From Chloroflexota bacterium (GTDB lineage: Bacteria; Chloroflexota; UBA11872; VXNJ01): a DNA stretch of 63,193 nt. The notes beneath the pieces were generated by a model. That model did no database searches and was not told the origin of the DNA. It worked only from the letters and a program-made list of their open reading frames with translations. Made by a program: the position numbers and the translations under genes. The DNA is taken from assembly GCA_030744875.1 (NCBI GenBank), contig JASLPR010000030.1:1-63193 (forward strand), written 5' to 3'. The stretch's first letter is position 1. Every line of letters begins with the position of its first letter. Below are positions 7,650 to 49,800 of the stretch, piece by piece.

Positions 7650-7839
7650 TGGTGGCTCCTCCTCATCCGCCGGCCGGATTCTCGGCGCCAACGCCGCGTT
7701 CTCCGCCCGACCCGATCGCTACCGCGCCCCGCGGAGTCGCCCCGTTAGTCTGGACGGCGCGCGGCGACGGCGAAAGCCACCGGCCCCGCACCCGTGGCTA
7801 AAATTGCCCCGCACCACCACCCCCCGGAGAACAAACCCC

Positions 7840-9078: not shown

Positions 9079-9216
9079 ATAGCGCCCCGCCGGGCGGACG
9101 CGTCGTCGAAAATCGCCCCGTTTTGCCCGAAATGCCATAATCCTTCAGCGCGAAGACCGTGCCGTGAGTGAGGGAGCCGGGCCCGCCGGCCGCATTCACC
9201 GCCGTCGCGACGCGAG

Positions 9217-10031
9217 GTGCCATTGAGGAATCCTGGTCGATTTCTGGGACGCCTGGGTCCGGGTCGACTCGTGCTCCTGCTGCTGGTGGCCCTGGCCGCC
9301 GTGGCAACCTACCGGCTGACCACCCACGGATGGCTGGCCGACGAGGAACCCGGAGCGGTTGCTGCTCCCCGGCCCACCATCATCGTCCTCCCCACCGCCA
9401 CCCCACTCCCACCCTGATCGCCGAAGCCCCTGCCCCGGCCGCTCAGGCCATCGCCGCCACCACCGCGTCTCCCGCCGAGCCCATCGATCCGGACGTCGCC
9501 CCCCGCCCCACCACCGCGGTCATGGTTGAATCGCCCACAGCGGTGGCGACGGCCACCCCAACCGCCGCGCTCACCGAGAACGCGACGGCCACCCCGTCCC
9601 CGCCGCCGTTACCATCGCCGATACCGACTGCCGCCGCCACCGCCACGCCGACTCCACTTCCGGCGGAGCCCACCCCGACCGCCACTGCCGCCACCATCCC
9701 CAACCCGGTCAACGGCTGGGTCGCCGCCGCGATACTGGCCCGCGGCATCAACGCCGACCAGTTACCGGTCGATATCGACGATCAGTTCCGCGTCGGGGAG
9801 AACGTCTACGTCGCCACCGAGTTCCGCGACGTACCGTCTGGCGCAACGGTCGGCATCGCCTGGTACCGCGACGGCGTCGAGGTCAGCATCTGGGAGTCCG
9901 GGCCGCAGTTCGGGTTCGAGCGCGCCAACTTCGCGTTCTTCCGGGTGGTCAGCATCGCCGGCGAGCACACGGTGAGCATTTTGATCAACGGCCAGGCGGT
10001 CGCCGGAGCGCGGTTCACCGTCAGCGAATAG
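9217..10031 (+). CDS. membrane-anchored Pro/Thr/Ala-rich protein with C-terminal Ig-like beta domain; apparent 1-nt frameshift in a C-run near 9400
   Basis: ORF 9217-9417 (TM helix + PTATP) and ORF 9168-10031 (TPT repeats + beta domain) join if one C is added in ACCCCACTCCC. Confidence 0.6.
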
Positions 10032-10124
10032 CCGGCCGGCCCCTCCGGGCGCACTCTTCCGAGCCACCCACCCCACCGTTCGTTGGCGCGCCTCGCGCGG
10101 CGGGTTCATAATCGCTGCAATAAA

Positions 10125-10145
10125 TATTTCCCGCGAGGAAAAATA
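10125..10145 (+). promoter_or_regulatory. palindromic operator TATTTCC-N5-GGAAAA upstream of the DtxR/MntR-family gene
   Basis: TATTTCCCGCGAGGAAAAATA in an AT-rich patch. A near-identical site lies upstream of feoA. Confidence 0.65.
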
Positions 10146-10153
10146 AGAGCCCC

Positions 10154-10858
10154 TTGGACAATCAGGACACAAACCGGCCCCGCACTCCACTGCCGGAAAG
10201 CCAGGCCGACCAGGACCAGCTCCGCGAGATCTACCTCGCCGGCGGCGTCGCCGCGCGGGTCCGCATGGGCCACCTAGCGGAAGCGCTCGACCGTCCGCCG
10301 GCCTCGGTCACGGCGGCCATCAAACGGCTCCATGAGGGCGGCTACGTCGACTACCAGCCCTACCACGGCGCGCAGCTCACCGATTCCGGCGCCGAGGCCG
10401 CGGTCGAGTTGGTCCGCCACCATCGCCTCATCGAGCGCTTCCTGGTCGAAATCCTCGGTTATGAATGGGACGACGTCCACGAAGAGGCCGACCGCCTCGA
10501 GCACTCCTTCTCGGAGAAGCTCGAGTACCACATCGCCGAAGTCTTGTCGAATCCCACTTCGGACCCCCACGGAGATTCCATCCCGAGCGCCGACTTGCAG
10601 GCCGTCACCGACGAATCGCGCGCCCTCGCCGGCGTCGATGTCGGCGCTTGGGTACAGGTGGTTCGGGTCCGCGATCGCGACCCGGAGATGCTCGGCTACC
10701 TGGCCGAGATCGGGCTGGTGCCGGGCACCCGGCTGGTGCTGGTCGAGCGCCTGCCCTTCGGCGGTCCGCTGGTGGTCGAGTACGGCGGTCGCACGCAGCC
10801 CATCGGCATCCCGGTGGCTGAGGCGGTCTTCGTCACCCCGCTTGCTTCCGGAGCCTAG
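10154..10858 (+). CDS. DtxR/MntR-family metal-dependent repressor with C-terminal FeoA/SH3-like domain
   Basis: wHTH (LAEAL..PPASVT.AIKRL), RHHRLIERFL, VHEEADRLEH, P..DPHGD.IP, and a FeoA-like tail (YLAEIGLVPG...PFGGP). Confidence 0.92.
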   Translation: MDNQDTNRPRTPLPESQADQDQLREIYLAGGVAARVRMGHLAEALDRPPASVTAAIKRLHEGGYVDYQPYHGAQLTDSGAEAAVELVRHHRLIERFLVEILGYEWDDVHEEADRLEHSFSEKLEYHIAEVLSNPTSDPHGDSIPSADLQAVTDESRALAGVDVGAWVQVVRVRDRDPEMLGYLAEIGLVPGTRLVLVERLPFGGPLVVEYGGRTQPIGIPVAEAVFVTPLASGA

Positions 10859-10908
10859 CCCCTGGCAACCTCCATTCTCCCCATCGCCGGTCCGCGTCCC
10901 GCCGGCCC

Positions 10909-13005
10909 CTAACCAGCCCCGAGCGCTCGCGCCAGCGCCACCAGCGGAATCAACACCGCGATCCCCAGCGCCAGCGGCAGCACAAACGCCAACCCGGCCC
11001 ATTTCCAGCTGCCGGTCTCTTTTCTGATCGTCAAAATTGTTGTGGAGCAAGGGTTGTGGAGAACCACGAACACCAGCAGCGATACGGCGGTCAGCGTCGT
11101 CCAGCCCTGGCCCTTCAGCAGCGTCTCGAGGCCGGTCAGTTGCTCCACGTCCACCATTGCCCCGGCGCCGGTGTAGGCCATCATGATTGTCGGCAGGACA
11201 ATCTCGTTGGCCGGGATGGCTAGCACGTAGCCCACGAGAACGATCCCGTCCAGGCCCAGCAGCCGGCCCGGCCCGTCCAGGAACCCGGCGACGTGGCTCA
11301 TCGGAGTCGCGCCGGCGATGGTCGTATTGCCCATCAGCCAGATGGCCAGCCCGGCCGGCGCGGCCGCCACCACCGCTCGATACAGCACCCGCAGGGTCCG
11401 CTCGTACATCGAGCGATAGATCACCGGCAGCAACTTCGGGCGGCGATAGGGCGGCAGCTCTAGGACGAAGGCCGAAGGCTCCCCGCGCAGGATCGTGCGG
11501 GTCAGCGCCCCGGAGACGATCAGCGTCGCCACCACGCCGAGCCCGATGGTCGCCACCACGGTCGCCGCCCCCACCACGGCTCCCAGGTAGGGCGGGAAGG
11601 CGGTCGCCACGAAGACCGAGGCGATCAGGATGATGGTTGGGAACCGCCCGTTGCAGGGGGCGAAATTGTTGGTCAGGATGGCCACCAGGCGTTCCCGGGG
11701 CGAACTGATGATCCGGCACGAGGTCACCCCGGCGGCGTTACAGCCAAAGCCCATGCACATCGTCAGCGCCTGCTGCCCGCTGCCGCCGGCGCGCGCGAAC
11801 ATCCGGTCCATGTTGAAGGCCACCCGCGGCAGGTAGCCGGCGTCCTCCAGCAGGGTGAAGATCGGAAAGAAGATCGCCATCGGCGGCAGCATCACGGCGA
11901 TCACCCAGGCCAGGGCCCGGTAGACCCCGTCGATCAGCACCCCGACCAGCCAGTCCGGCGCGGCGGCCCAGGCCAGCGCTTCATGGCCGCGGTCGGCCAC
12001 CCAGAACAGCGCCGCCGCCAGCCACTGCGACGGATAGTTCGCGCCGGTGATCGTCAGCCACATCGCCGTCACCAGGCCCACGAACATCAGCGGATAGCCG
12101 CCCCAGGCCGAAGTCAGCACCCGGTCCACCCGGGCCGTCAGTCGCGGCCGGTCCACCGCTCGCTCCCGCACCGTCTGTTCCAGCAACCGCCCCACCTCCG
12201 CCCAGAGCGCTCCGGTGGTCGCCGCCGCCATCCGCTCCGCTTCTTCCGTCGTGACAATCGGAATCTCGACCCGCCGCGCCGCATCGCCGGTCAGCACCCG
12301 GCGCACCAGTTCCGCGTCCCCCTCCAGCGCCCGGGCCGCCAGCCAGCGCGGCGCTGGCAGCGCCGGGTCCTTCGCCACCAGGTCCAGCATCAACGTCGTC
12401 ACCGCCTCTTCGGCGTCCGCCGGGTAGTGCACCGGGCACGGGGCCGGCTGGTCGTCGGCCGCGCAGACCCGGGCGATGGCCGCGCGGAGATTCGCGATTC
12501 CCAGCCCGTCGCGCGCGGTCGTCGCCACCACCGGCACCCCCAGTTCCGCCGCCAGCCCGGCCACGTCGATCTGCACGCCGTGCCGCGCCGCGCCATCCAT
12601 CATGTTCAGGCACACCACCACCCGGCCGGTGAACTCGCGGATCTGCAGCACCAGGCCCAGGTTGCGCTCTAGCGCCGAGGCGTCCACCACCACCACCACC
12701 ACATCGGCATCCTCGAAGACTAGGAACTCCCGCGCCACCACCTCGTTCTCGCTGGTAGCCACCAGCGAATAGGTGCCCGGCAGGTCCACCACCCGGTATT
12801 CGCGTTCGGCGTGGCGGTAGGTCCCGGCGGCCAGTCCCACGGTCACCCCCGACCAGTTCCCGACGTGCTGATGCAGGCCGGTCAGGGCATTGAAGACGGT
12901 GCTCTTGCCGGTGTTGGGGTTGCCGGCCAGCGCCACCACAAAAGCCCCCGTAGCCTCCGCCGGCGCGGTGACCCCGGGCATCGCCACCGAGCCCGCCGCC
13001 TTCAT
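10909..13005 (-). CDS. feoB: ferrous iron (or manganese) transporter FeoB
   Basis: G1 GNPNTGKST, GNW.GVT, DLPGTYS, NMMD, LEDAGYLPR, GFGCNAAG, ELPPYR, PANEI. Confidence 0.95.
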   Translation of the reverse strand: MKAAGSVAMPGVTAPAEATGAFVVALAGNPNTGKSTVFNALTGLHQHVGNWSGVTVGLAAGTYRHAEREYRVVDLPGTYSLVATSENEVVAREFLVFEDADVVVVVVDASALERNLGLVLQIREFTGRVVVCLNMMDGAARHGVQIDVAGLAAELGVPVVATTARDGLGIANLRAAIARVCAADDQPAPCPVHYPADAEEAVTTLMLDLVAKDPALPAPRWLAARALEGDAELVRRVLTGDAARRVEIPIVTTEEAERMAAATTGALWAEVGRLLEQTVRERAVDRPRLTARVDRVLTSAWGGYPLMFVGLVTAMWLTITGANYPSQWLAAALFWVADRGHEALAWAAAPDWLVGVLIDGVYRALAWVIAVMLPPMAIFFPIFTLLEDAGYLPRVAFNMDRMFARAGGSGQQALTMCMGFGCNAAGVTSCRIISSPRERLVAILTNNFAPCNGRFPTIILIASVFVATAFPPYLGAVVGAATVVATIGLGVVATLIVSGALTRTILRGEPSAFVLELPPYRRPKLLPVIYRSMYERTLRVLYRAVVAAAPAGLAIWLMGNTTIAGATPMSHVAGFLDGPGRLLGLDGIVLVGYVLAIPANEIVLPTIMMAYTGAGAMVDVEQLTGLETLLKGQGWTTLTAVSLLVFVVLHNPCSTTILTIRKETGSWKWAGLAFVLPLALGIAVLIPLVALARALGAG

Positions 13006-13274
13006 CGCGCCTTGCCCCCGGTTTCCACCGGCCGCACCTTCACGCTTTGCGACTCAGCGGCGCGCAGGGCGAACACCGAATCACGAATCCGGTACGCCCG
13101 CAGGTCCCCAAATGGCGCGCGTAGCTCCAGTACCACCGGCGTACCCGACACGAACCCCAGGTCCAGCAACCGGCGTTGCATGAGGCCGTGCGCCACCACC
13201 GCCACCACCTCCGCCTTCTGTCCCGCGCTCAGTTCAGCCAGAGAAATCAAAGCGCCACCGCCTCCACCCGCCAT
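13002..13274 (-). CDS. feoA: FeoA domain protein
   Basis: RRLLDLGFVSGT.V....APFGD..AY.IRD...ALR. Overlaps the feoB start. Confidence 0.9.
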   Translation of the reverse strand: MAGGGGGALISLAELSAGQKAEVVAVVAHGLMQRRLLDLGFVSGTPVVLELRAPFGDLRAYRIRDSVFALRAAESQSVKVRPVETGGKAR

Positions 13275-13373
13275 CCATCAATCAGTAGCCGCCGCGAAAT
13301 CAAGCCGCCGCCTCCGCCCGCCACCACCTCCGCCTTCTGTCCCGCGCCCAGATCCAACCGCGAAATCAAGCCG
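13201..13373. repeat. degenerate tandem duplication of the feoA 5' end
   Basis: 28-nt GCCACCACCTCCGCCTTCTGTCCCGCGC at 13201 and 13320; CCGCGAAATCAAGCCG at 13292 and 13358. Confidence 0.8.
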
Positions 13374-13435
13374 TTCCCCCGTTTGCCGGCTGGCCGCCCT
13401 CCATTTCGCGACCTTGATTTCCAGTGTAACAGAAA

Positions 13436-13456
13436 TAGTTTTCCTAAGCGGAAATA
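13436..13456 (-). promoter_or_regulatory. palindromic operator TATTTCC-N5-GGAAAA upstream of feoAB
   Basis: Minus strand reads TATTTCCGCTTAGGAAAACTA, matching the site at 10125. Confidence 0.65.
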
Positions 13457-13596
13457 ATAAGCTGTGCCAGCTGCCAAATGCTCGGTGCGCAGGTTTGCGC
13501 GACACAACCGGAGCCAACGACCACGCCACCAGCTGCCAACCCGCCTAGTATTGAAGCCGTCGCCAGCGTCCGCCCCGCCAACCGGAGACGCCGAAA

Positions 13597-13986
13597 ATGC
13601 CGAAGTCCCGCGAGAGCCGCTGGCGCGCGCGTTCCAAGGTCTGGCTGGAGGACGACCGGGTAGTGCTGCTCAGCGGGTTCCGGGCCGACCTGTTGGAGCG
13701 GGTCGACCGGCTCGGTTCGGTCTCGGCGGCGGCCCGCGAGCTCGATCTGCCCAACCGGACGGCCTGGAAGAAGCTTCAGGAGACAGAAGCCGCGGCCGGC
13801 TTTCCGCTATTGATTTCGACCTCCGGCGGGTCCGGCGGCGGGGCGTCGCGGCTCACCGACGAAGCCCGGTCGTTGCTGGCCGCGTTCCGGCGGGTCGCCG
13901 ACCCGGTCAGCGGCCTGGTCGACGAGCGCTTCGCGGCCGAGGCCGGTAGCTTCGTTGCACCGCCCGATGAGACCGACCCGGCCTAA
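13597..13986 (+). CDS. ModE-like winged-helix regulator (N-terminal domain only)
   Basis: KVWLE...R..LL..VD..GSVSAAAREL....AWKKL...E...G.PL.....GG..GG.S.LT. No TOBE/mop domains. Confidence 0.85.
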   Translation: MPKSRESRWRARSKVWLEDDRVVLLSGFRADLLERVDRLGSVSAAARELDLPNRTAWKKLQETEAAAGFPLLISTSGGSGGGASRLTDEARSLLAAFRRVADPVSGLVDERFAAEAGSFVAPPDETDPA

Positions 13987-14146
13987 CCCTGCCGGCCCCG
14001 GCTAGCCCCGCCTCCTCACCAGCACCGCGGTCACCGCCAGCGCCACCACCGCCTAGGCCGCCAGCACGGCGTATGCCGCCTCGGTGCCATCCACCAACCT
14101 CTGTCAAACCCTGCTTCTCCTCTAAGCCCGGCTAGAATGCCCGGCT

Positions 14147-15358
14147 ATGGAGGGCATGTTCGGACTCAACACCGTCGAAATCGCCGTCGCCCTGGTGACG
14201 GTCGCGGTCGTCGCCGCGCTCATCGTCCGCCTCGTCGCCGTGCCCTACACCGTAGCACTGGTCGTTCTCGGCCTGGTTACTGCCGAACTTTTCCGTGACC
14301 AGCACTTCGAGATCAGCCCCGAAGTCGTGCTAGTCGTTCTTCTACCGGGCCTCATCTTTGACGCCGCCTTCCGCATCGACATTCGCGAGTTCCGCCAGTC
14401 CATCGCCGGGGTCGCCGTTCTGGCCGCGCCCGGCGTCATCATCTCCGCCGCCGTCGTCGCCGCCATCCTCCATTTCGCCACCGGCATGCGCGCCGACCTG
14501 GCCTTCGTCATCGGCGCCATGGTCTCCGCCACCGATCCCGCCGCCGTCCTCACCACCTTCCGGCGGCTCGGATCGCCCAAGCGTCTCGCCACCCTGGTCG
14601 AAGGCGAATCGCTCTTCAACGACGGCACCGGCCTGGTCGTCTTCGTCATCGCCATCCAGGCCGTCCAGTCCGAGGTCGTCATCACCGGCGCGATCGTGCA
14701 GTTCTTCGTCACCGTCGGGGTCAGCATCCTCATCGGTCTCGTCGGCGGCCTGGTCGTTTCCCTCATCGTCGCCCGGGTCGACGACCACCTAGTCGAGACG
14801 ACCCTCTCCCTGGCGCTCGCCTACGGTGCCTACGTCATCGCCGACGCCTTCCACGAATCCGGCATCATCGCCACCGTCACCGCCGGAATCGTCCTCGGCA
14901 ACGTCGGCCGCCGCATCGGCATGTCCGAGACCACCCGCCAGGCCATCGATAGCGTCTGGGAGTTCCTCGCCTTCGTGCTCACCGCCGTTGTCTTCCTGCT
15001 CGTCGGCCTGGCCATCACCCTGGAGAGCCTCCGCGACGCCATCGGCCCCATCCTCTGGGCCATCCTTGCCGTCCTGATCGGCCGCGCGCTGGTGGTCTAC
15101 CTGCTGCTCAACGGCGCCTCCCGGCTGGCCGTCTTCGGCGGCATCGCTCCGCATCTGCCCACATCCTGGCTCAACGTGCTCTGGTGGTCCGGGCTGCGCG
15201 GCGCGGTCGCTGTTGCCATGGCCCTCTCGCTGCCGCTGGATTTCCCCGACCGCGCCCTCCTGCAGGAGATCACCTTCGGCGTCGTCCTCTTCACTCTTTT
15301 CGTCCAGGGAACCACTATCGAGATACTCATCGCCCGCGCCGGCGACATAGATTTATAA
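14147..15358 (+). CDS. CPA1 family (NhaP-like) Na+/H+ antiporter
   Basis: LLP.LIF.AA, SATDP.AV, VEGESLFNDGTG, WWSGLRGAV; about 12 TM. TAGAAT -10 lies 8 nt before the ATG. Confidence 0.92.
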   Translation: MEGMFGLNTVEIAVALVTVAVVAALIVRLVAVPYTVALVVLGLVTAELFRDQHFEISPEVVLVVLLPGLIFDAAFRIDIREFRQSIAGVAVLAAPGVIISAAVVAAILHFATGMRADLAFVIGAMVSATDPAAVLTTFRRLGSPKRLATLVEGESLFNDGTGLVVFVIAIQAVQSEVVITGAIVQFFVTVGVSILIGLVGGLVVSLIVARVDDHLVETTLSLALAYGAYVIADAFHESGIIATVTAGIVLGNVGRRIGMSETTRQAIDSVWEFLAFVLTAVVFLLVGLAITLESLRDAIGPILWAILAVLIGRALVVYLLLNGASRLAVFGGIAPHLPTSWLNVLWWSGLRGAVAVAMALSLPLDFPDRALLQEITFGVVLFTLFVQGTTIEILIARAGDIDL

Positions 15359-35732: not shown

Positions 35733-36539
35733 CTAGGCGTCGCCGGGGGAGGGCCGGGTCAGCGGCGGTCCACCGTCGACGTAGTGGGACTGCGCCTGGG
35801 CGATCCGCGTAGCCGTTCCCGGCAGGCTTTCCAGCAGGTTGCGGAACACGTCCTCTTTGATGGTCAGCGTCTTCATATCGGTGTCGGCGCGGATCGAGGC
35901 GTGACGGGTCGAGTCGCCCAGCAGCGCCAACTCGCCGAAGAAGTTGCCCTCCTCCAGCACCCGGTCCTGGCGCTTGCCGGCCGCCGTCGCCACCGTTACT
36001 CGCGCCTGGCCCCGCCGGATCACATGAAAGTCGCTGCCGTAGTTGCCCTGCAGGAAAACCACCTTGCCGGCCGGGTAACGTTCCCAGCCGAAGCGCCGCG
36101 CCAGTTCCGGATCGCGCGTCTGCAGCGATTCGATCTTCTGCGCGACGTTTCGCTGCGAAAGTAGCACCGCCGAGCGGCGCTCAAACTGCTCGCCCAGGGT
36201 GAATTTCTGCAGGCCCAGCATGTTCACTAGCGGCCGGATCGACAGCCCCTGCACGAACAGCGTGAACAGCACCACCCCGAAGGTCATGTCCAGCAGCAGT
36301 TCGCGATCCTCGAAGCCGTGGTCGAGGCTCAGCACCATCGCCAGCGCCATCGCCCCGCGCAGACCGCCCCAGTACATCACCGCCTGGTAGCGCCAGGTGA
36401 TCGGGTGCAGCAGCAGGCGATTCACCAGCGGCAGGGCCATCAGCATCGGTAGGCCGCGGGCCACCAGCACGGCCGCCCCCGCCACCAGCAGCAAGACCGC
36501 TACCAGCAGCACTTCCTCCGCGGTGAACACATCTTCCAT
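35733..36539 (-). pseudogene. internally deleted CPA1 antiporter with C-terminal cNMP-binding domain
   Basis: The first TM is joined directly to the last TMs (WGGLRGA...FGVVLFTLFVQG), followed by the cNMP motif GNFFGELALL..R.ASI.A. The core TDP/GESL.ND motifs are absent. Confidence 0.7.
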
Positions 36540-38269: not shown

Positions 38270-38797
38270 CTAGTCGTCCCCGCCCGCCCCGTAGATCCGG
38301 CCGGCGCTCGTCGCCCCGGGCATCCACAGTGTCATGAACTCCAGCAGCCCCAGGTAGCTCCGCGCCTTGCCCGCCTCATCCACGATCGGGATACCACGCA
38401 GGCCGTTGGAGTGCAGCGTCAGGAAGGCGTCCTCGGCCGTGTCTGAAAACGTGATCGACACCGGCTCCGTCATCATCTCCCCCACCGTGTCATGCACCGC
38501 CAGCAAGAACGTCGCGTCCAGCATCCGCTCCAGGTCCATCAGGTCTTTGGTGTAGCCCTCCGGGAGCGCGTCGGCCAGGATGTCGTCGATCAGGCGGCCG
38601 ATTTCGAGAATGCCCACCAGCTGGTCTTCGGCGTCCACCACCGCGAGGGTGTTGGTGTCGCGATGGCGGCAGAACAGCCGCACCGCGTCCACCGCCAGCG
38701 ACTCCGGGTGCACTGCCACGGCCGGGCGCGGGCCCAGGTAGTCGCGGATTTCGGCGATTGTTGATTGCCGGGTGATCTTGAAGTCGGACTGGGGCAA
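38270..38797 (-). CDS. CBS domain pair protein
   Basis: Two CBS units (LAVVD....LVGIL; V.EMM..PV....GIPIVD..G). Confidence 0.8.
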   Translation of the reverse strand: MPQSDFKITRQSTIAEIRDYLGPRPAVAVHPESLAVDAVRLFCRHRDTNTLAVVDAEDQLVGILEIGRLIDDILADALPEGYTKDLMDLERMLDATFLLAVHDTVGEMMTEPVSITFSDTAEDAFLTLHSNGLRGIPIVDEAGKARSYLGLLEFMTLWMPGATSAGRIYGAGGDD

Positions 38798-38845: not shown

Positions 38846-40585
38846 TCAGTCGCTTTTCGGATCGCCCTCCGCGTCGTCAGGATCCTCTTCAGCCGCGTCT
38901 TCGGGGGCCGCGATCTCGTCAACCTCTTCCAGCACCGTGCCGTCCTGCGGGTCGCTGGGCGCTTCGATCTCATCAAGCTCCGCCAGCGCCGCGCCGTCCG
39001 GATCGTCGAAGTCGTCGTCGCTCAAAATCACCAGCCCGCGGCCTTCCAGCTGCTCCAACTCGGGCACCAGGTCGCGGGTCTCGTGTTCCGGGAGCGTCGC
39101 CAGTAGGACGGCGACCTTCTCCGCGAACTCCTGGGCCTCCTCCTCGTAGCGGCTGAACGGGTCCGCCATTCGCAGCACCTCGCCGTTCAGCACCACCGCG
39201 TCCCAATCGATCATGTACGGCACCAGGTAGAAGTTGCCGATGGCCAGCAGGTCGCGCCAGCCGTCGATGTACTGGTAGGCCAGGAACAGGTTCTCCTCCC
39301 AGCCCGTCTGCTCGCCCAGGTCACGGTGCAGCCGCCGCCAATCAACGCGATCCGCGGCCCGGTGCTCGGCCAGCGCCCGCACGACGATCGCCCGTCCGAA
39401 CGCGCGGGTGCCCTTCGGTGGGGCCAGCATCGCCTGTTTGATATGCCCCTCGGCCACCTGCAGCACGATGTCCTCGCGCTCCTTCAGCGTCGTGTACAGG
39501 CTCACCCGCGGGTCGATGTGGTGGTAGGCTTGGTCGACCTTGCGCAGGTCGGGGTCGCTCCAGCCCTGCGGCGAGTCTTCGGCAAAGGCGCGCAGGCGCT
39601 CCAGCTTGGTGACCCAGTCCACCCGCCCGGACAGCGTCATCGGGTCGTCGGCCAGCCCATCCAGCACCCGCTCCCACTCGGTCAGCGTCCAGATGGTGTC
39701 CGGGTCGCGGTCGCCGTAGCGCCGCGTCGCCTCGGCCAGGAACATCCGCTGCACCTCAATCGCCGAGATCTCCCCGTAGGTGGTGTCCTGCACCGACCAG
39801 TCGCCCTCCCAGTTGGCCGCGATCCGTCGCAGGTCGCGCACCGTGTCCACCAGGTCCACCGGCGTTAGCCAGCCGTCGTCCAGCAGTTGCACCGCAAGCG
39901 CGGTGGTACCGATCTTGAGCGCCGTGGCGTACTCCGAGCGGTTGGCGTCGCTGGCGATCACGTGCAAGCGGCTGCGGTTGCCCAGCGGCTCGTCGCGTAG
40001 ATTGATGATCGGTCGGCCGCCGAAGCGCACCCGTCGGCTGACGTCCTTCTCGACGAACCCGCTGCGCTGTGCGATCGAGTACCGGGGCTCTCCCTCCATC
40101 CCCGGCACCTCCACCATCCCCGCCCCGGCGTAAAGCTGCCGCGTGACCAGGAACGGCATGAACCCGTACACCACCCGCGGGTCGTCCGGCTCGGAGCGCA
40201 GCGAGTAGTTCTCGTGGTAGCCGAAGGTGCTGCCGAAGTAGTCGGTGTTGTTCTTGACGAAATAGATCTCGTCGCGGCGGTCCAGTTCGTCCAGCGTCGC
40301 CAGCAGGATCCGGTCACCGGCCATCTCGTGGGCGACTATCGAGCCCAGCGTGCGGCACTCGGCGGTGGCGTATTCCAGGTGCCCGGAGTCGATGTAGAGT
40401 CGGCCGCCGTTGAACAGGAACCCGCCATTCCCGGGCTTCTCGCCCCACTCGCGCGGCGCCGGGTCGATCACCCCGTAATTGCCGCCGTCGAACACCTGCA
40501 CCTTCACCATCGCTGCGGCCTGCGCGGCGGCCACCGCGCCCACGCAGCCGTATTCCACCTCGGTGCCGAAAAGCGCGTCCTGCAT
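38846..40585 (-). CDS. pafA: Pup/UBact-type protein ligase PafA homolog with C-terminal extension and acidic tail
   Basis: LFG.EVEYG, GGFLFNGGRLYID.GH.EYATAEC, KNNTD..G..FG.HENY, PFLVTRQ...GAG, RPIIN.RDEP, RLHVI..DAN.SE...ALK.G, DW..K. No Dop loop. Confidence 0.88.
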   Translation of the reverse strand: MQDALFGTEVEYGCVGAVAAAQAAAMVKVQVFDGGNYGVIDPAPREWGEKPGNGGFLFNGGRLYIDSGHLEYATAECRTLGSIVAHEMAGDRILLATLDELDRRDEIYFVKNNTDYFGSTFGYHENYSLRSEPDDPRVVYGFMPFLVTRQLYAGAGMVEVPGMEGEPRYSIAQRSGFVEKDVSRRVRFGGRPIINLRDEPLGNRSRLHVIASDANRSEYATALKIGTTALAVQLLDDGWLTPVDLVDTVRDLRRIAANWEGDWSVQDTTYGEISAIEVQRMFLAEATRRYGDRDPDTIWTLTEWERVLDGLADDPMTLSGRVDWVTKLERLRAFAEDSPQGWSDPDLRKVDQAYHHIDPRVSLYTTLKEREDIVLQVAEGHIKQAMLAPPKGTRAFGRAIVVRALAEHRAADRVDWRRLHRDLGEQTGWEENLFLAYQYIDGWRDLLAIGNFYLVPYMIDWDAVVLNGEVLRMADPFSRYEEEAQEFAEKVAVLLATLPEHETRDLVPELEQLEGRGLVILSDDDFDDPDGAALAELDEIEAPSDPQDGTVLEEVDEIAAPEDAAEEDPDDAEGDPKSD

Positions 40586-40608
40586 CGGTTCGAGTCCTGC
40601 CGACGCCC

Positions 40609-40791
40609 CTACTCGCCGCCCGGCTGCGGGGTCGGGTCGGGGATTTCGCGGATGATTCGTTTTACCCGCTCATCCAGTTCGTCGTCTTCCTTCTTCTTCG
40701 GCTTGCTCGGCGTTTTCGACGGCTTCGTCGGCGCGTCCGTCTCCAGCACCGGCAGGCCCCCCGCCGCGAAATGCTTCCTCATCATGCTCAA
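40609..40791 (-). CDS. prokaryotic ubiquitin-like modifier (Pup/UBact analog) ending in GGE
   Basis: 60-aa Pro/Lys/acidic protein with C-terminal PQPGGE, between dop and pafA. Its start overlaps the dop stop; RBS GGGAG. Confidence 0.8.
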   Translation of the reverse strand: MSMMRKHFAAGGLPVLETDAPTKPSKTPSKPKKKEDDELDERVKRIIREIPDPTPQPGGE

Positions 40792-42290
40792 TTTCTCCCG
40801 GACTCCAATCTGGCAACCGCTTCGGCGAGCGTCGCCGCTTCCGCGAACACCTCCGTCAGCCGGTCGATCACGTCCCCGGCCACCGCTTCCATTTTGACCT
40901 CAATCGTCCTGCCGTCCAGTTCCAGGGTTACCGAATCCCATTCCATGTTCCGCACGTGGCTCCCAAACCGTCGCAGGATCAATCCTCGCACCGTCCCGCG
41001 GGTTCCCGAAGGCGGAGTCTGCGTCGCCGCTCCGATCCGACTTTCGCTCACCAGCGTGCGCATCCGGCCGCTCTCCACCAGCGAGTCGTACAGGCTCATC
41101 TCCGGGTCCACCAGGTGGTAGGCGAGATCGATCTTGCGGCGGCTGGCCAGGTCGAGTTCCGCGGCCCCGCCCGGACTGTCCAGCAAGTTCCGCTTCGCCA
41201 CCCAGTCCAGCCGGTCGCCGGCCGCCGCCGGGTCGCTCCGCAGCAGGTCCAGCAACTCCCGCCACTGGCCCAGCACCCAGCCCCGCTCCGCGCCCTCCAC
41301 GCCCTGCGCCTCCAGCGTCTCCAGGTAGCGCTCCATGATGTCGGGCGCGCTCACCGCTTCCCCCGAGTCCAGCTCCGCCGTCGCCCGCAGGTCCGGGTCG
41401 CGCGAAAACTCCCGCACCGCCCGCACCGGGTCGCGCAGCCGGATTCCGAAATCCTCGTCGGCCACCAGCCGGTCCAGCACCAGCCCGCTCATGCCCGCCT
41501 TCAGCGCCGTGGCGTATTCGGAGCGGTTGGCGTCGCCGGCGATCACGTGTAGCCGGCGATATTGCTTCTTGTCGGCGTGCGGCTCGTCGCGGGTGTTGAA
41601 GATCGGCCGCCGGGCCGTCGTGTTGATGCCCACTTTCTCTTCGAAGAAATCGCCCCGCTGGCTGAGCTGGAACTTGGCGGCCCCGGCCACCTTGCCTTCG
41701 CAGCCCACCTTCCCCGCCCCCACCAGCACCTGTCGGGCGACCAGATACGGGATCATGCCGTCGACCAGCTTTTGGAACGGCACCGCCCGCGGCACCAGGT
41801 AGTTTTCGTGGGTGCCGTAGGAGCGCCCGTGGTAGTCGGTGTTGTTCTTCACCACCAGCACCTTGCCGTCGGCCGCCGACCCATTCCGAGCCTGCTGGCA
41901 GGCCAGCAGCAGGCGCTCGCCGGCCTTGTCCTGCGCCACCAGATCCTTCAGCGACACGCAGACATCGGTGCAGAACTCCGGGTGGTTGTGGTCGTTGTAG
42001 TAGCGCGCCCCGCTGGGCAGCACCGTGTTGGCCAGCAGTTCCTCGGCCGACATCTTCGAGCTCTTTGAAGTGGAGTTGCGCAGGTCGTGAGGGTCGCGTT
42101 CGAGCCGCTCGGCGCGGATCCCGCGCAGATCCCAGTAGGGGTCCTCACGGCTGTAGTCCCAGCCGCGAAACGCACCTTCCACCCGCGCCGCGCGGACCAG
42201 CATCGACGCCTCATAGCCGAAGTCGATCTCTTCGCTGAACCCTTCGCAGTTCAGTCCGTACTCGGTTTCGATCCCCACCGGCCGGATCAC
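40788..42290 (-). CDS. dop: Pup deamidase/depupylase Dop homolog
   Basis: GIETEYG, Dop-loop WDYSREDP..D.RG, GARYYNDH.HPE, DKAGE, KNNTD.HG.SYG.HENY, SQR.DFFE..VG..TT..RPI.NTRDEPHAD...YRRLHVI.GDAN. Confidence 0.9.
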   Translation of the reverse strand: MIRPVGIETEYGLNCEGFSEEIDFGYEASMLVRAARVEGAFRGWDYSREDPYWDLRGIRAERLERDPHDLRNSTSKSSKMSAEELLANTVLPSGARYYNDHNHPEFCTDVCVSLKDLVAQDKAGERLLLACQQARNGSAADGKVLVVKNNTDYHGRSYGTHENYLVPRAVPFQKLVDGMIPYLVARQVLVGAGKVGCEGKVAGAAKFQLSQRGDFFEEKVGINTTARRPIFNTRDEPHADKKQYRRLHVIAGDANRSEYATALKAGMSGLVLDRLVADEDFGIRLRDPVRAVREFSRDPDLRATAELDSGEAVSAPDIMERYLETLEAQGVEGAERGWVLGQWRELLDLLRSDPAAAGDRLDWVAKRNLLDSPGGAAELDLASRRKIDLAYHLVDPEMSLYDSLVESGRMRTLVSESRIGAATQTPPSGTRGTVRGLILRRFGSHVRNMEWDSVTLELDGRTIEVKMEAVAGDVIDRLTEVFAEAATLAEAVARLESGRN

Positions 42291-43162
42291 GCCAAAGCCT
42301 CCGGTGCTCTTCCCGGGCCCACGAACTCCAGCAGCGTCGCCCGGGGCGGGCAGTTGAATCGCAGCGGCAGGTTGGCCGTGCCGACCCCGGCGCTCACGTG
42401 GGTCGGCACCCCCTCGATGACCATCAGGCCGTACGTGGACGGCAGCCGCAGCGCTGTGTTCGTCATCCCCCGGATCAGCCCGCCGGGAAACAGGATCTGA
42501 CCGCCGTGGGTGTGACCCGACAGCATCAGGTCGCAGCGCCTCTCGCCCACCAGTCGCGCCGCGTCGGGCGAGTGCGCCAGCAGCAACACCGGCTCCGTCG
42601 AATCGACCGCTGCGTAGGCCTGGTTCAGGTCGGCCATCCCGAAATAGGGGTCGTCGGTGCCCACCAATTGCACCGGCCCTCGCTCCGTTTCGACCCGAAC
42701 GCTCGAGTTGCGCAGCGTGTTCAACCCCTCCTCGCGGAACACCCCCAACACCGCCTCCGGGTGCGAAAAGCGCCCGATCTTGCCGGATACCCGCTGCCCG
42801 AGCGTGCCGTGATAGTGATCGTGGTTCCCGAGCACAACGAACGTCCCCAGCCGCGCGCGCAGCGCGACCAGCGCCCGCGTCGCCGGCCGCAGGCCCGGCG
42901 GCTGCGTGATCACGTCGCCGGTTACCAGCACCAGGTCGGGCTCCAGGCGTTCGAGCTGCCGCAGCGCCCCGACCGACCAGGTCCGCGGGCTCTCGGCGTG
43001 CAGGTCGGTGAGGTGCAGGACGGTCATCCCGTCCAACGCCGACGCCGTCGCCAGCGGCACCCGGATCGTCTCGATCACCAGCGCCTGGGCCTCGCGCAGC
43101 GCCCAGCCCAGCGCCCCCATCCCCAGGGCGCCAACCGCCGCCAGCGTCGATAACGGGCGCAT
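42287..43162 (-). CDS. calcineurin-like metallophosphoesterase (YkuE-like)
   Basis: DLH, TGD, GNHD, H.PD, SGHTHGGQ, VSAG.G...R..CP. Its stop overlaps the dop start. Confidence 0.9.
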   Translation of the reverse strand: MRPLSTLAAVGALGMGALGWALREAQALVIETIRVPLATASALDGMTVLHLTDLHAESPRTWSVGALRQLERLEPDLVLVTGDVITQPPGLRPATRALVALRARLGTFVVLGNHDHYHGTLGQRVSGKIGRFSHPEAVLGVFREEGLNTLRNSSVRVETERGPVQLVGTDDPYFGMADLNQAYAAVDSTEPVLLLAHSPDAARLVGERRCDLMLSGHTHGGQILFPGGLIRGMTNTALRLPSTYGLMVIEGVPTHVSAGVGTANLPLRFNCPPRATLLEFVGPGRAPEALA

Positions 43163-43324
43163 GCGGCGGGCCTCCTGGTCATGGTTCGCGGGCGGGCGCC
43201 CGCCCCATGCGGACAAACATTTACCGGCCGTTGATGGGGTGAATCTATACTGGCCGGACCAGCCCACGATTGTAGCGGGTTGGACCACCCACCACCCGTC
43301 CCGATCCGCATGAGGAGCACCCCG

Positions 43325-44380
43325 ATGTCCAGTTCCGAACAGCCCACCTTCAAGCTCGGTTTGCTGACCGGCGGCGGCGATTGCCCCGGTCTCAACGCCG
43401 CCATCCGCGCCGTGGTCCGCAAGTCCATCATCAACGGTTGGCAGATCATGGGCTTTCGCAACGGCTGGGCCGGCATCCTCGAGCGCGATTACTTCGAGAT
43501 GACCGACCGTCACGTCTCCGGCATCCTCAACCAGGGCGGCACCATGCTGGGCACCTCACGGACCGATCCCCGCAAGACGAAGGGCAATTACGAGAAGGCC
43601 CGCTCGATCTTCGAGGGTCCGGGGCTCGACGCGCTGATCGCCATCGGCGGCGATGACACCCTCTCCGTCGCCAATCAACTGGCCGCCGACGGCCACCCGG
43701 TGGTCGGCATCCCCAAAACCATGGACAACGACGTGCAGGGCACCGACTACTGCATCGGCTTCGACTCCGCCGTCACCCGGGTAACCGAGGCGCTGGACTT
43801 CCTGCACACCACCGCCAGCTCGCACCATCGCGCCATGGTTGTCGAGGTCATGGGCCGCGACGCCGGCTGGGTCGCCACCATCGCCGGGCTCGCCGGCGGC
43901 GCCGACTACATCGTCATCCCCGAGGTCGCCGCGCAGCTGGACGACATCCTCGGGCGACTCAATATGCGCCGCGACCAGGGCAAGGACTTCAGTATCATCG
44001 TCATCTCCGAGGGTGCCCGCATCGAAGGTCTCGAAGAGGCCGAGGCGCGCGTGTCCGGCAGCGATGAGTTCGGCCACGTCGACCTGAGTTCCAAGGAGCT
44101 GGGCCGCCGCCTGGCCAACGCCATCGAAGACGGCACCGGCATGGAGACCCGCGTCACCGTGCTGGGCCACGTGCAGCGCGGCGGGCCGCCGTCGGTCTTC
44201 GACCGCGTGCTGGCCACCCGTCTGGGCGTGACCGCCGTGCGCATGGTGCGCAACCAGCGCTGGGGCTACATGCCGGCCCTGCAGGGCCGCGATATTGTCG
44301 AGGTCCCGCTGACCCAGGCCGTCGGCACCAACCGCAAGGTGGACCTGGACCTGTACGAAGTCGCGGAAATCTTCTTCTAG
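43325..44380 (+). CDS. pfkA: 6-phosphofructokinase, probably pyrophosphate-dependent
   Basis: TGGGDCPGLNA, GGT.LGTSR, GGDDT, PKTMDND, EVMGR.AG, LGHVQRGG. Confidence 0.92.
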   Translation: MSSSEQPTFKLGLLTGGGDCPGLNAAIRAVVRKSIINGWQIMGFRNGWAGILERDYFEMTDRHVSGILNQGGTMLGTSRTDPRKTKGNYEKARSIFEGPGLDALIAIGGDDTLSVANQLAADGHPVVGIPKTMDNDVQGTDYCIGFDSAVTRVTEALDFLHTTASSHHRAMVVEVMGRDAGWVATIAGLAGGADYIVIPEVAAQLDDILGRLNMRRDQGKDFSIIVISEGARIEGLEEAEARVSGSDEFGHVDLSSKELGRRLANAIEDGTGMETRVTVLGHVQRGGPPSVFDRVLATRLGVTAVRMVRNQRWGYMPALQGRDIVEVPLTQAVGTNRKVDLDLYEVAEIFF

Positions 44381-47236: not shown

Positions 47237-49393
47237 CTAGCCGGGAGCAGCAGCTGCCGGATCATCGACCGTCGCAACGCCATCCATCTCCACGATCTTG
47301 ATGTCGCCGTCTTGCAGGGTCACTTCGTAGGCGGCGGCTTCGTCGCCGTCACCCTCGATGATCCTGGTCGCCAGCGGATCCTCCACTTCGCTTTCCAGCA
47401 TGTGCCGCAGCGGCCGCGCTCCGTCGTCGCGCTCCACTGTCCGCCGCACGAAGTACTCCAGTACGTCGCCGGCGAAGCTGACCGTCACCCCCTGCTCGGC
47501 GGCCTGCCCGGCGAACGCCGACAGCGTGCGCCGCCCGATCTCGCGGTAGTCGGCCTCTTCCAGCTTGCGAAACAGAATCTGGCGGTCGATCCGGTTGATG
47601 AACTCGGCCGGCAGATCGCGTTTGACCTGCGACATGATCCGCGTTTCGGTGGCCTGCGAATAGCCGCCGTGGTCCGATTCCAGCTCGAAGCCGATCTGCC
47701 CGCTCGCCGCCACGCCGGCGCCCATGGTCAAGATCACGATGGTATTGCGGAAGTCCACCTTGCGGCTGGCGCCGTCGGTCAGGAAGCCCTCTTCCATGAT
47801 CTGCAAAAGGATCGTGCGCACCGCCGAGTGGGCCTTGTCGATCGAGTCGAACAGCACCACCCCGTAGGGGTCGCGGCGCACCCGTTCGGCCACGTGGCCG
47901 CCCTCGTCGTGGCCCACGTAGCCCGGCGGCGAGCCGATCAGCCGCGAGACGTTGTGACGGTCGGTCATCTCGCCCATGTCCACCCGGATCAGCTTGTCGT
48001 CGGAGCCGATCGTGAACTCGGTCAGGGCGGCCGCCAGCTCGCTCTTGCCGACCCCGCTGGGTCCCACGAAGAGGAAGACCCCGATGGGGCGGTTGGCGTC
48101 TTTGAGGCCGGCGGCGGCGCGCCGCAGCGAGCGCGACACCTCGCGCACCGCCTCATCCTGCCCGACCACCCGCTTCTCCAGCGCCTGCTCCATGCCCAGG
48201 TAGCGGTCGGCCGCCTCGGCGCTGACGTTGCCCAGGGGCACGCCGGTCCATTGCGCCAGCACCTCTTCCACGTCCTCGGTGGTGATCGCCCGGCGGGTGC
48301 GCTCCAGCTCGGCGTACCAGTCGCGGCGCTCGCTCAGCAGGTCCTCGCGCAGTTCCGCCTCCTGGGTGGCGATGTCCAGCACGTCGGCGGCTGCGGCGTC
48401 GTCGGGCAGCGACTCGCGCACCGCTCGCAGGTCTTCCAGCTCGCGCCGCAGGTCCCGCACCCGCTCCGGCGGCATCAGCCGCGACACCTTGGCCCGGGCC
48501 AGTGCTTCGTCCATCAGGTCGATGGCCTTGTCCGGCAGGAAGCGCTGGCTCAGGTAGCGCTTCGACAGCTTTACCGCCGCCGCCAGCGCGTCGTCGGCGA
48601 TCGGCAGGCCGTGAAACTCCTCGTAGCGCTCGCGCAGGCCGTGCATTATTTCGATGGCGTCCTCGGGGCTGGGCTCTTCGACCTGGATCGGCTGAAAGCG
48701 GCGATACAGCGCCTTGTCGTTGGCGACGTGGCGGCGGTATTCCTCCCAGGTGGTCGCGCCGATCATGCGCAGCTGCCCCCGCGCCAGGGCCGGCTTCAGC
48801 AAGTTGGCGGCGTCCAGCGAGCCCACCGCGTCACCGGCGCCGAGGATCATGTGCACCTCGTCGACGAACAGGATCACATTGTCGGCCTCGGTGACCTCTT
48901 TGATCAGCCGTTTCACGCGATCCTCGAACTCGCCGCGGTACTTGGTCCCGGCGATCATCGCGCTGACGTTCAGGGAGATCAGGTGCTGATCGCGCAGGGC
49001 GGCCGGTACCTCGCGGCGCGCCACCCGCTGCGCCAGACCCTCGACGACGGCCGTCTTGCCGACACCGGCCGAGCCCACCAGCACCGGGTTGTTCTTGGTG
49101 CGGCGCATCAGGATTTCGACCATGCGCTCCGTCTCCATGTTGCGGCCGATCACCGGGTCCAGCGCGCCGTTGCGCGCCCGGGTGGTCAGGTTGACCCCGA
49201 ACTGCTCCAGCACCGACTCGCGCCGCGGCCCGTGGCCCATGTCAAAACGTCGCCCGCCACCGCCGCCGCCGCCGCGCCGCCCGCCGCGTCCCCGCCGCCC
49301 GCCACGGCGCATCAGGTACAGCTCGGCCGGCAGGCACGCCGCGCCACGGCCGGCGCCCAATTCAAAGTCGAACATGAAGCTCATCGCCGCCAC
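47237..49393 (-). CDS. ClpC/ClpB-family AAA+ ATPase lacking the Clp_N domain, with atypical second ATPase module
   Basis: LDPVIGR, RRTKNNP.L.G..GVGKT, GTKYRGEFE, FVDE.H, coiled-coil M domain, GPSGVGKS, LIGSPPGYVG, IGF loop, GARPLR. Confidence 0.9.
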   Translation of the reverse strand: MAAMSFMFDFELGAGRGAACLPAELYLMRRGGRRGRGGRRGGGGGGGRRFDMGHGPRRESVLEQFGVNLTTRARNGALDPVIGRNMETERMVEILMRRTKNNPVLVGSAGVGKTAVVEGLAQRVARREVPAALRDQHLISLNVSAMIAGTKYRGEFEDRVKRLIKEVTEADNVILFVDEVHMILGAGDAVGSLDAANLLKPALARGQLRMIGATTWEEYRRHVANDKALYRRFQPIQVEEPSPEDAIEIMHGLRERYEEFHGLPIADDALAAAVKLSKRYLSQRFLPDKAIDLMDEALARAKVSRLMPPERVRDLRRELEDLRAVRESLPDDAAAADVLDIATQEAELREDLLSERRDWYAELERTRRAITTEDVEEVLAQWTGVPLGNVSAEAADRYLGMEQALEKRVVGQDEAVREVSRSLRRAAAGLKDANRPIGVFLFVGPSGVGKSELAAALTEFTIGSDDKLIRVDMGEMTDRHNVSRLIGSPPGYVGHDEGGHVAERVRRDPYGVVLFDSIDKAHSAVRTILLQIMEEGFLTDGASRKVDFRNTIVILTMGAGVAASGQIGFELESDHGGYSQATETRIMSQVKRDLPAEFINRIDRQILFRKLEEADYREIGRRTLSAFAGQAAEQGVTVSFAGDVLEYFVRRTVERDDGARPLRHMLESEVEDPLATRIIEGDGDEAAAYEVTLQDGDIKIVEMDGVATVDDPAAAAPG

Positions 49394-49396
49394 CCG

Positions 49397-49558
49397 CTAC
49401 GTCGGCAGGGGCAGGGAGTCCACGAAGTCCTGCAATGCCCGCCCGATGGTGTCGCCCAGCCCGTTGAGGATCGCCAGCAGCGTCACGACGAAGAAGGCGA
49501 TCACCAGCGCGTAGGCGGCCGCGCCGAAGCCTCCGCCGCGACTCTCGATTCCTGCCAA
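49397..49558 (-). CDS. Flp/type IVb pilin-like small protein
   Basis: MAGIESRGGGFGAAAYALVIAFFVVTLLAILNGLGDTIGRAL...: short leader, G-x5-Y-AL hydrophobic helix, LG..I pattern. The Glu+5 is replaced by Ala. Confidence 0.5.
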   Translation of the reverse strand: MAGIESRGGGFGAAAYALVIAFFVVTLLAILNGLGDTIGRALQDFVDSLPLPT

Positions 49559-49800
49559 TGCCCGGCCCTTTCGCGATCCGGCCGGTTCCAGAACGCCGGC
49601 CACCTGTGTCTTTGAATTGTACCTGCCCCAGCCGGGCCTCCCGGTCTTGTTTCTTACTTCGCCATCCGCGCCCTCCAGCCGACTCGCGAAACCTGCAAAA
49701 CCGCTCCAAAACCGGCCCTTTTCTGCTAGAATTGCCTGATGTCTGATCACCCCAAACGTGCCTTGAACGCCCTGCAGTCGTGCCCCCCGGCTGGTTGCCT

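Follow-up and report, generated by a model that had tools for sequence, protein, structure and literature searches.

We analysed a stretch of 63,193 nucleotides (nt) from a Chloroflexota bacterium (GenBank assembly GCA_030744875.1, contig JASLPR010000030.1, positions 1 to 63,193; hereafter the window). On its minus strand the window carries a small gene, encoding a putative protein modifier (hereafter the tag), between genes for a Dop-like and a PafA-like enzyme. We argue below that this cassette probably encodes a protein-tagging system related to Pup and UBact. The cassette and its two immediate neighbours are as follows.

40788–42290, minus strand: Dop-like enzyme, predicted deamidase/deconjugase (500 residues), with the Dop loop, a GIETEYG nucleotide motif and the catalytic Asp in an NDH motif
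40609–40791 (TTG start, 60 residues) or 40609–40785 (ATG start, 58 residues), minus strand: small modifier gene (tag), product ending in PQPGGE
38846–40585, minus strand: PafA-like enzyme, predicted tag ligase (579 residues), with a GTEVEYG motif and Asp66 in LYIDSGH, without a Dop loop
42287–43162, minus strand: metallophosphoesterase, YaeI/LpxG-like (Pfam Metallophos, 49 bits)
38270–38797, minus strand: CBS-pair protein, 48 nt downstream of the PafA-like gene, a lineage-specific neighbour

An earlier inspection of the DNA letters (hereafter the sequence-only reading) had described four overlapping or closely spaced minus-strand genes, and the map of open reading frames (ORFs) agrees. The end of the phosphoesterase gene shares 4 nt with the beginning of the Dop-like gene, the ATG of the modifier lies 2 nt past the Dop-like stop, and the ATG of the PafA-like gene lies 23 nt past the modifier stop. 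No terminator-like site was found on the minus strand inside the four-gene block. The modifier likely starts at the ATG at 40785 (58 residues) rather than at the TTG at 40791, because GGGAGA precedes the ATG and because homologs and an ESM Atlas record start there. The phosphoesterase frame is open from 42287 to 43513, and its N-terminal part overlaps a plus-strand PFK gene; its start was placed at 43162 because homologs have 250–289 residues and because the sequence-only reading began the gene at that position.

Both large proteins belong to the Pfam family Pup_ligase (PF03136), which the Dop-like protein matches with 456 bits and the PafA-like protein with 339 bits (cut-off 25). The motifs quoted earlier were also found, namely WDY..EDP..D.RG, GARYYNDH and KNNTDYHGRSYG in the 500-residue protein and PGNGGFLFNGGRLY in the 579-residue protein. 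The description of a Dop homolog with the Dop loop and a PafA homolog flanking a 60-residue ORF that ends in PQPGGE is thus correct.

A small conserved gene between two Pup_ligase paralogs

The modifier gene has a codon composition of the coding type (GC content of 0.85 at third and 0.45 at second codon positions). A word-indexed search returned 77 homologs of 43–101 residues, all unnamed or annotated as 'hypothetical' and none with a Pfam domain. Homologs with a named source come mostly from Chloroflexota metagenome-assembled genomes (MAGs), and marine, sponge-associated, lake and groundwater samples are among the sources. In the alignment of the family (A1), the N-terminal half is variable, disordered and rich in proline, lysine and acidic residues, and there is essentially no variation over the last 17 residues ([KR]RIIREIPDPTPQPGGE). 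A second motif, E-x-[ED]-A-P-x-K-P, which has two invariant prolines, is seen in A1 at approximately residues 18–30 (window 40700–40740). As a lead taken from the alignment, A-P-x-K-P is a possible docking site for a partner.

To survey the family, all prokaryotes, at one genome per species, were scanned for P-[DG]-P-T-P-Q-P-G-G. The scan demanded the motif before and including the Gly pair, and left the last residue and the stop codon free. It found 184 stretches, 80 of which are listed as confirmed loci; all counts out of 80 loci given below refer to this listed set. In every one of the 80, the ORF ends in GGE (51 loci) or GGQ (29 loci) immediately before the stop. All are titled Chloroflexota or Chloroflexi, including one titled UBA2235, one with a TK10 label and three MAGs labelled Thermoflexus; together with the named homologs, they agree with the earlier guess that the host belongs to the Chloroflexota. 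On a FastTree phylogeny of 79 PafA-like proteins, the terminus has changed between E and Q at least 6 times, as expected for a tag that a deamidase can activate. The same E/Q alternation is seen in the alignment of UBact proteins.

A profile search of 1.84 billion representative proteins yielded 26 matches at E ≤ 0.001. Twenty-two of them are short proteins (55–100 residues) aligned to the C-terminal end of the profile; six of these were inspected, and each ends in P-Q-P-G-G-[E/Q]. No likeness to Pup or UBact was found among the short hits of this search. The other four matches comprise three truncated or frameshifted calls of the tag gene and one partial match in a 2246-residue protein. A tag seemingly fused within a 628-residue open frame (genome G038) was ruled out, as the locus has a separate 57-residue ORF.

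Tag profile A1 matches 36 of 41 closest relatives, in one copy each. In a sample of 401 genomes of the phylum, 42 carry the tag; these belong to families f1, f2 and f3, and none of the approximately 356 genomes of other families has it. PF03136 occurs in 43 of the same 401 genomes, i.e., the 42 tag-bearers, with two copies each, and G385, a genome described below; three f1 or f2 genomes without the tag are also without PF03136. Apart from G385, tag presence in the phylum sample coincides exactly with that of paired Pup_ligase paralogs. Within the window's class, 76 of 81 genomes carry the tag, once per genome (8/9 in f1, 28/30 in f2, 17/17 in f3, 13/14 in f83 and 9/9 in f84). The best explanation is that the system is passed on by vertical descent and is close to universal within a single uncultured class of Chloroflexota. 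The small ORF is a real gene, conserved far beyond chance: orthologous loci keep both the frame and the GG[E/Q] at its end, in the 80 listed loci as well as in these 76 class genomes.

A Dop-like gene upstream and a PafA-like gene downstream of the tag, on the same strand, are found at 78 of the 80 loci, and the two remaining loci are interrupted by contig ends. When 20-kb loci of seven other genera were compared, the Dop-like, tag and PafA-like genes alone were common to all seven. A phosphoesterase homolog lies within 4 kb upstream at 10 of the 80 loci and a CBS protein downstream at 6; among the seven genera, the phosphoesterase is kept in family f1 only. Because both neighbours are rare at other loci, the core unit consists of three genes and not four. 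The phosphoesterase, proposed earlier as the fourth member of the operon, was consequently rejected as a component of the system.

The spacer between the tag and the PafA-like gene measures approximately 240–700 nt in several f3-type loci (L041, 4118–4750; L023, 10321–10841; several among L036–L085) and 6–30 nt in other genera. No conserved ORF was obvious in the long f3-type spacer, as read in L041.

The two enzymes and the predicted tag–ligase complex

Residues 2–463 of the Dop-like protein align with the solved Dop structures 5lrt and 4b0r, the approximately 40-residue Dop loop included (313 bits, versus 201 bits for PafA). Residues W44, D45, Y46, E49, D50, D54, G57, R59 and D100, as well as the GIETEYG motif and the remaining active-site residues, are invariant in 17 Dop-like sequences of the class. 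In the PafA-like protein, the catalytic D66 aligns with Cg D64; the same position is Asn in the PafA–Pup chain of 4bjr. For the comparison of residues, we used the positions that tell PafA from Dop in Table 1 of PMC7947786. PDB alignments place several PafA-type residues near D66, namely F56 (Phe54), G68 (Gly66) and A73-T74-A75 (Ala72-Thr73-Ala74), and positions 73–75 read ATA or ATP in the other PafA-like proteins of the class. The one-residue insertion after the catalytic Asp (Val65) is absent from the PafA-like protein.

An enzyme tree of 32 sequences, none of them actinobacterial, divides with a support of 99 into a Dop side and a PafA side; comparison with actinobacterial PafA, Dop and Pup was made through hidden Markov model (HMM) scores, PDB alignments and the published residue table. 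On the Dop side are the Dop-like proteins of the class and the Dop of a UBact operon found in G385. On the PafA side are the PafA-like proteins of the class, three PafA-type paralogs of G385, among them the PafA of the UBact operon, and proteins annotated as 'PafA2'. These PafA2 relatives include Poribacteria, Latescibacterota and Handelsmanbacteria, and Poribacteria MAGs also have annotated UBact. The signature PGNGGFL.NGGRLY.D.GH.EYATPEC is common to the class PafA-like proteins and the outside PafA2 proteins. Because of the tree grouping and the common signature, we regard the PafA-like protein as an ortholog of the UBact-operon PafA and not as a recent copy of Dop, and the same evidence confirms the earlier impression that the enzymes are closer to the UBact clade. 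We infer that the PafA-like protein has ligase activity.

The PafA-like enzyme (residues 1–500, 48-row alignment) was co-folded with the tag (46-row alignment). The score was 0.76 (median of three runs), versus 0.03 for the best of three controls; the runs had at least 76% of contacts in common, and the predicted local distance difference test score (pLDDT) of the partner was at least 53. In the calibration, 58 of 80 solved complexes reached the mark, as did 2 of 110 mismatched pairs. In the predicted complex, residues 35–60 of the tag would contact enzyme residues 11, 13–17, 66–69 and 115–124, in the active-site sheet, and residues 330–370.

Several observations weigh against the interpretation of these proteins as a tagging pair of the familiar kind. 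The Dop-like protein scores 394 bits on the NCBIfam Dop model TIGR03688, under the equivalog cut-off of 492; the UBact-type Dop of G385 is likewise under this cut-off (481 bits). The PafA-like protein scores 245 bits on the PafA model TIGR03686, under a cut-off of 551, and slightly higher (254 bits) on the Dop model; against solved structures, it scores 194 bits on Dop and 165 bits on PafA. A Foldseek search of its model against the PDB gave template modelling (TM) scores, by target, of 0.81–0.88 for Dop and 0.74–0.78 for PafA, which are about equal and not discriminating. The alpha-loop, described as the discriminating element, which is helical in PafA but forms a loop in Dop (PMC7947786), is unlike both PafA and Dop in the sequence of the PafA-like protein. 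In the AlphaFold model, to which we attach low weight on this point, residues 177–190 are predicted to form a strand and a loop, with no helix (pLDDT 72 at 181–190). The calibration of the co-fold mark applies only approximately because our own alignments were used. Moreover, because the PafA–Pup complex has already been solved, passing the mark is a sign of likeness and not a proof. Finally, the geometry of binding may differ from that of Pup, the C-terminus of which is helical, because a Pro-rich stretch and not a helix precedes GGE in the tag.

The AlphaFold model of the PafA-like protein has an overall pLDDT of 84 and a predicted TM score of 0.83, and residues 505–579 are disordered. This tail (window 38846–39070) is strongly acidic and contains two similar D-E-I-x-A-P segments. 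The approximately 498-residue orthologs of most other genera sampled do not have it, and a few have shorter acidic tails.

Relation to Pup and UBact, and the missing proteasome

The 60-residue ORF has no match at E ≤ 1 in Pfam or NCBIfam, including the models of Pup (PF05639) and UBact (PF20513 and NF033388), and ESM Atlas provided neither a model of the tag nor a usable match by features. The UBact of G385, taken as a positive control, scores 77 bits on NF033388 (cut-off 35). The Pup HMM has no match anywhere in the window's genome at E ≤ 10, and tag profile A1 has none to the Pup chains of the PDB at the same threshold. For UBact, 63 listed homologs were collected, all of which carry PF20513, and 37 of these were aligned (A2). 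Alignment A2 features the invariant block L..M..VD....RYRQR.G[E/Q]; the R-[T/S]-G-[E/Q] end that follows the RRYRQR block in UBact is absent from the new family, which has PQPGG[E/Q]. When full profiles of the tag and of UBact were compared using hhalign, the probability was 0.3%, with one aligned column. Profiles trimmed to the C-terminal 30 columns align weakly (P=0.04, probability 1.3%), the acidic-then-basic segment of the tag pairing with ELLRRMRR of UBact.

The sequence-only reading had held that the modifier is neither Pup nor UBact, and as far as models (no match at E ≤ 1) and motifs define these families, this is the case. Neither a Pup or UBact hit nor a lack of conservation of the ORF, either of which would have counted against that reading, was observed. 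Its proposal of a third class stands insofar as the tag forms a separate sequence family; as to origin, the tag may still descend from UBact, with which it aligns weakly when the profiles are trimmed. The tag looks like a third family of bacterial ubiquitin-like tags, and a proteasome-free one.

The UBact system, reportedly described by Lehmann et al. in 2017, resembles the cassette in several respects. Its tag gene lies directly downstream of a Dop homolog, in an operon with a PafA homolog, and UBact itself is a short, disordered protein that ends in G-[E/Q]. UBact enzymes are the closest relatives of the class enzymes outside the class, and the canonical form of the system is present in the same class, in G385. 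In contrast, UBact ends in R-Y-R-Q-R-[S/T]-G-[E/Q] and the new tag in P-Q-P-G-G-[E/Q], and the new tag is matched neither by the UBact models nor by the UBact profile. In addition, the Mpa and the adjacent 20S proteasome of UBact operons are missing here, and the cassette is down to three genes.

Likeness to actinobacterial Pup extends to the Gly-Gly-Glu or Gly-Gly-Gln end of the tag, to the presence of a Dop paralog with the Dop loop and a loop-less paralog, and to the active-site residues of the carboxylate-amine ligase fold, which are kept. As with Pup, the tag is predicted to lie in the groove of the enzyme, with its C-terminus in the active site. The systems differ in that the new tag has no match to the Pup HMM and both enzymes score under the PafA and Dop equivalog cut-offs. 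Moreover, Pup has a helix before GGE where the new tag has a Pro-rich segment, the conserved part of the new tag is much shorter, and the Mpa/ARC ATPase and, usually, 20S proteasome that accompany Pup are absent here.

The window's own genome (89% complete) has no match to the proteasome family PF00227, and nothing in it exceeds the cut-off of the Mpa model TIGR03689. The model matches best to an AAA core encoded on contig C58 (151 bits), followed far behind by an FtsH-type protease (AAA and Peptidase_M41 domains) on contig C41 (31–38 bits). In the class sample, only two genomes match the Mpa model at E ≤ 1e-60, G385 over its full length (453 bits) and G437 in the AAA core alone (221 bits); both stay under the cut-off of 504.75. 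A strong match to PF00227 is found in G385 only. No match to PF00227 was obtained in 67 of the 76 tag-bearing genomes, many of which are single-contig assemblies.

Nine of the 76 tag-bearers have one weak PF00227 match each (22–46 bits), which lies either on a contig other than that of the cassette or 68 kb or more away from it. These genomes are G027 (C1:1265122–1265565), G029, G031, G369, G425, G431 and three others, and the matches are mostly frames of approximately 250–320 residues.

G385 belongs to the same class but to another family; it has Pup_ligase in four copies, and the profile of the new tag does not match it. Its UBact operon (locus L025, G385:C2:54000–73999) spans positions 7490–14680 of that locus on one strand and consists of the following genes.

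Mpa-like ATPase: TIGR03689, 453 bits
Dop-like enzyme: TIGR03688, 481 bits
UBact, a 73-residue ORF ending in RRYRQRSGE: NCBIfam UBact, 77 bits (cut-off 35)
Proteasome beta: TIGR03690, 138 bits
Proteasome alpha: TIGR03691, 71 bits
PafA-like enzyme: TIGR03686, 321 bits

This operon offers a plausible picture of the ancestral state. Two more PafA-type paralogs of G385 map to L026 (9072–10550) and L027 (9048–10631), one of them directly upstream of a MazG-family gene.

Pupylation without a proteasome was reportedly found in Corynebacterium glutamicum by Kueberl et al. in 2016. As a control genome, C. glutamicum matches PF03136 and the Mpa model, and not PF00227. The cut-off of TIGR03689 is exceeded in exactly one of 14 named control genomes, C. 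glutamicum being among those matched, and we take this match to be its ARC/Mpa. The Chloroflexota class would resemble C. glutamicum in keeping tagging without a 20S proteasome. It differs in being without an Mpa-type ATPase as well, and in the family to which its tag belongs.

Proposed mechanism, alternatives and neighbouring genes

Our preferred explanation, which we consider probable, is that the cassette encodes reversible lysine-tagging of the Pup/UBact kind by a new family of tags. Such a system would have been passed down vertically within a single Chloroflexota class and would operate with no link to Mpa or the proteasome. The conserved C-terminal residues (approximately 25) of the disordered modifier would bind in the groove of the PafA-like carboxylate-amine ligase. 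Using ATP, the ligase would phosphorylate the gamma-carboxylate of the terminal Glu, which would then be joined to lysine side chains of target proteins. The Dop-like paralog would deamidate GGQ to GGE and would also take the tag off its targets. The enzymology is thus expected to be conventional. The system probably originated from a UBact-type operon such as that of G385, which would have lost Mpa and the 20S proteasome while the tag was remodelled or replaced. As a consequence of that loss, the tag would not deliver proteins to the proteasome; its read-out could be regulatory, or tagged proteins could be passed to another AAA+ machine.

Readings that depart from this one concern either the ancestry of the tag or its function. 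It may tentatively be suggested that an unrelated protein displaced UBact when Mpa and the proteasome were lost, that tagged proteins have a non-proteasomal fate and that a new reader recognises the tag through A-P-x-K-P; if this is true, both the tag and the reader of the pathway would be new, and its outcome would be non-degradative or rely on an alternative protease. It is rather unlikely that the tag is simply a fast-evolving UBact, of the same family and mechanism, that is missed because the database models are too narrow, and such a history would affect ancestry and not mechanism. The tag does occupy the same slot between UBact-clade Dop and PafA homologs, a true UBact exists in a sister lineage of the class, and both tags are disordered, Pro-rich proteins of approximately 55–75 residues ending in G-[E/Q], the trimmed C-terminal profiles of which align weakly (P=0.04, probability 1.3%). 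However, the tag has no match to PF20513 or NF033388 at E ≤ 1, whereas all 63 listed UBact homologs carry PF20513, and the full profiles align with a probability of only 0.3%. The R-Y-R-Q-R block is absent from the new tag and I-P-D-P-T-P-Q-P-G-G is absent from UBact, the search of 1.84 billion proteins recovers no UBact, and neither Mpa nor the proteasome, the partners of UBact, accompanies the tag.

A function other than protein tagging is improbable. The tag might serve as a LysW-type carrier, its Glu being joined to a small-molecule amine, or as a peptide regulator of both enzymes, which would fit the absence of a proteasome and of Mpa and the lack of conservation of the alpha-loop, the element that contacts targets in PafA. 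Yet no biosynthetic genes are conserved beside the cassette, the three genes alone being common to the seven other genera. A Dop-like enzyme kept complete, loop included, and the recurrent switching between E and Q are in line with a reversible cycle of tagging, and protein-tagging operons are where the closest relatives of both enzymes occur. A chance origin of the small ORF, or a role as a leader peptide with no separate function, might be suggested by its shortness, low complexity and 'hypothetical' annotation, but is effectively refuted by conservation. The 17-residue C-terminus is invariant across families whose enzymes are approximately 50% identical, the codon GC is of the coding type, the stop comes right after GG[E/Q] in all 80 loci and co-occurrence with the enzymes is perfect.

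To our knowledge, Pup and UBact are the only two tag families known for PafA/Dop-type bacterial tagging, and both are discussed mainly as routes to the proteasome. In full-text literature searches that covered few subscription journals, no paper was found to describe a Chloroflexota tag linked to PafA/Dop, and current Pfam and NCBIfam hold no model for the new tag, which apparently represents a family undescribed so far. In the accessible portion of PMC11354881, Pup and UBact are the only tags named; PMC7947786, which gives a list of phyla with Dop/PafA homologs, contains 'Chloroflex' nowhere. The pathway is invisible in current annotation because the tag genes (55–100 residues) are 'hypothetical' or uncalled and the enzymes are labelled 'PafA2 family'. 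It provides a natural system for asking what tagging of this kind does without a proteasome. It also lets one ask which parts of a tag the enzymes need, as the terminal G-G-[E/Q] and a short amphipathic segment are the only common feature.

Some genes further away in the window may be mentioned. A Clp/Hsp100-type double-AAA+ ATPase (AAA, AAA_lid_9, AAA_2 and ClpB_D2-small domains) is encoded at 47237–49393 on the minus strand, approximately 5–6 kb from the cassette. A Clp-type ATPase lies at a similar distance from the cassette in L018 (16839–19022) and L019 (15565–17619), both from f1 genera, and in L023 (18323–19951), from an f3 genome; it was not found beside the cassette in three f2 genera or in L024. 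As a lead, this ATPase could be an unfoldase for tagged proteins, or its proximity could be a coincidence. A 117-residue ORF that adjoins it (49397–49750) has no Pfam match, and its identification as ClpS is therefore unsupported. On the other side of the cassette, a 268-residue ORF (35733–36539, minus strand) corresponds to the last 90 or so positions of a Na+/H+ exchanger model followed by a cyclic-nucleotide-binding domain. Because homologs of similar length occur in the f1 loci L019 and L024, it is a conserved short form and not a local truncation; the homolog in L024 has the same position as in the window.

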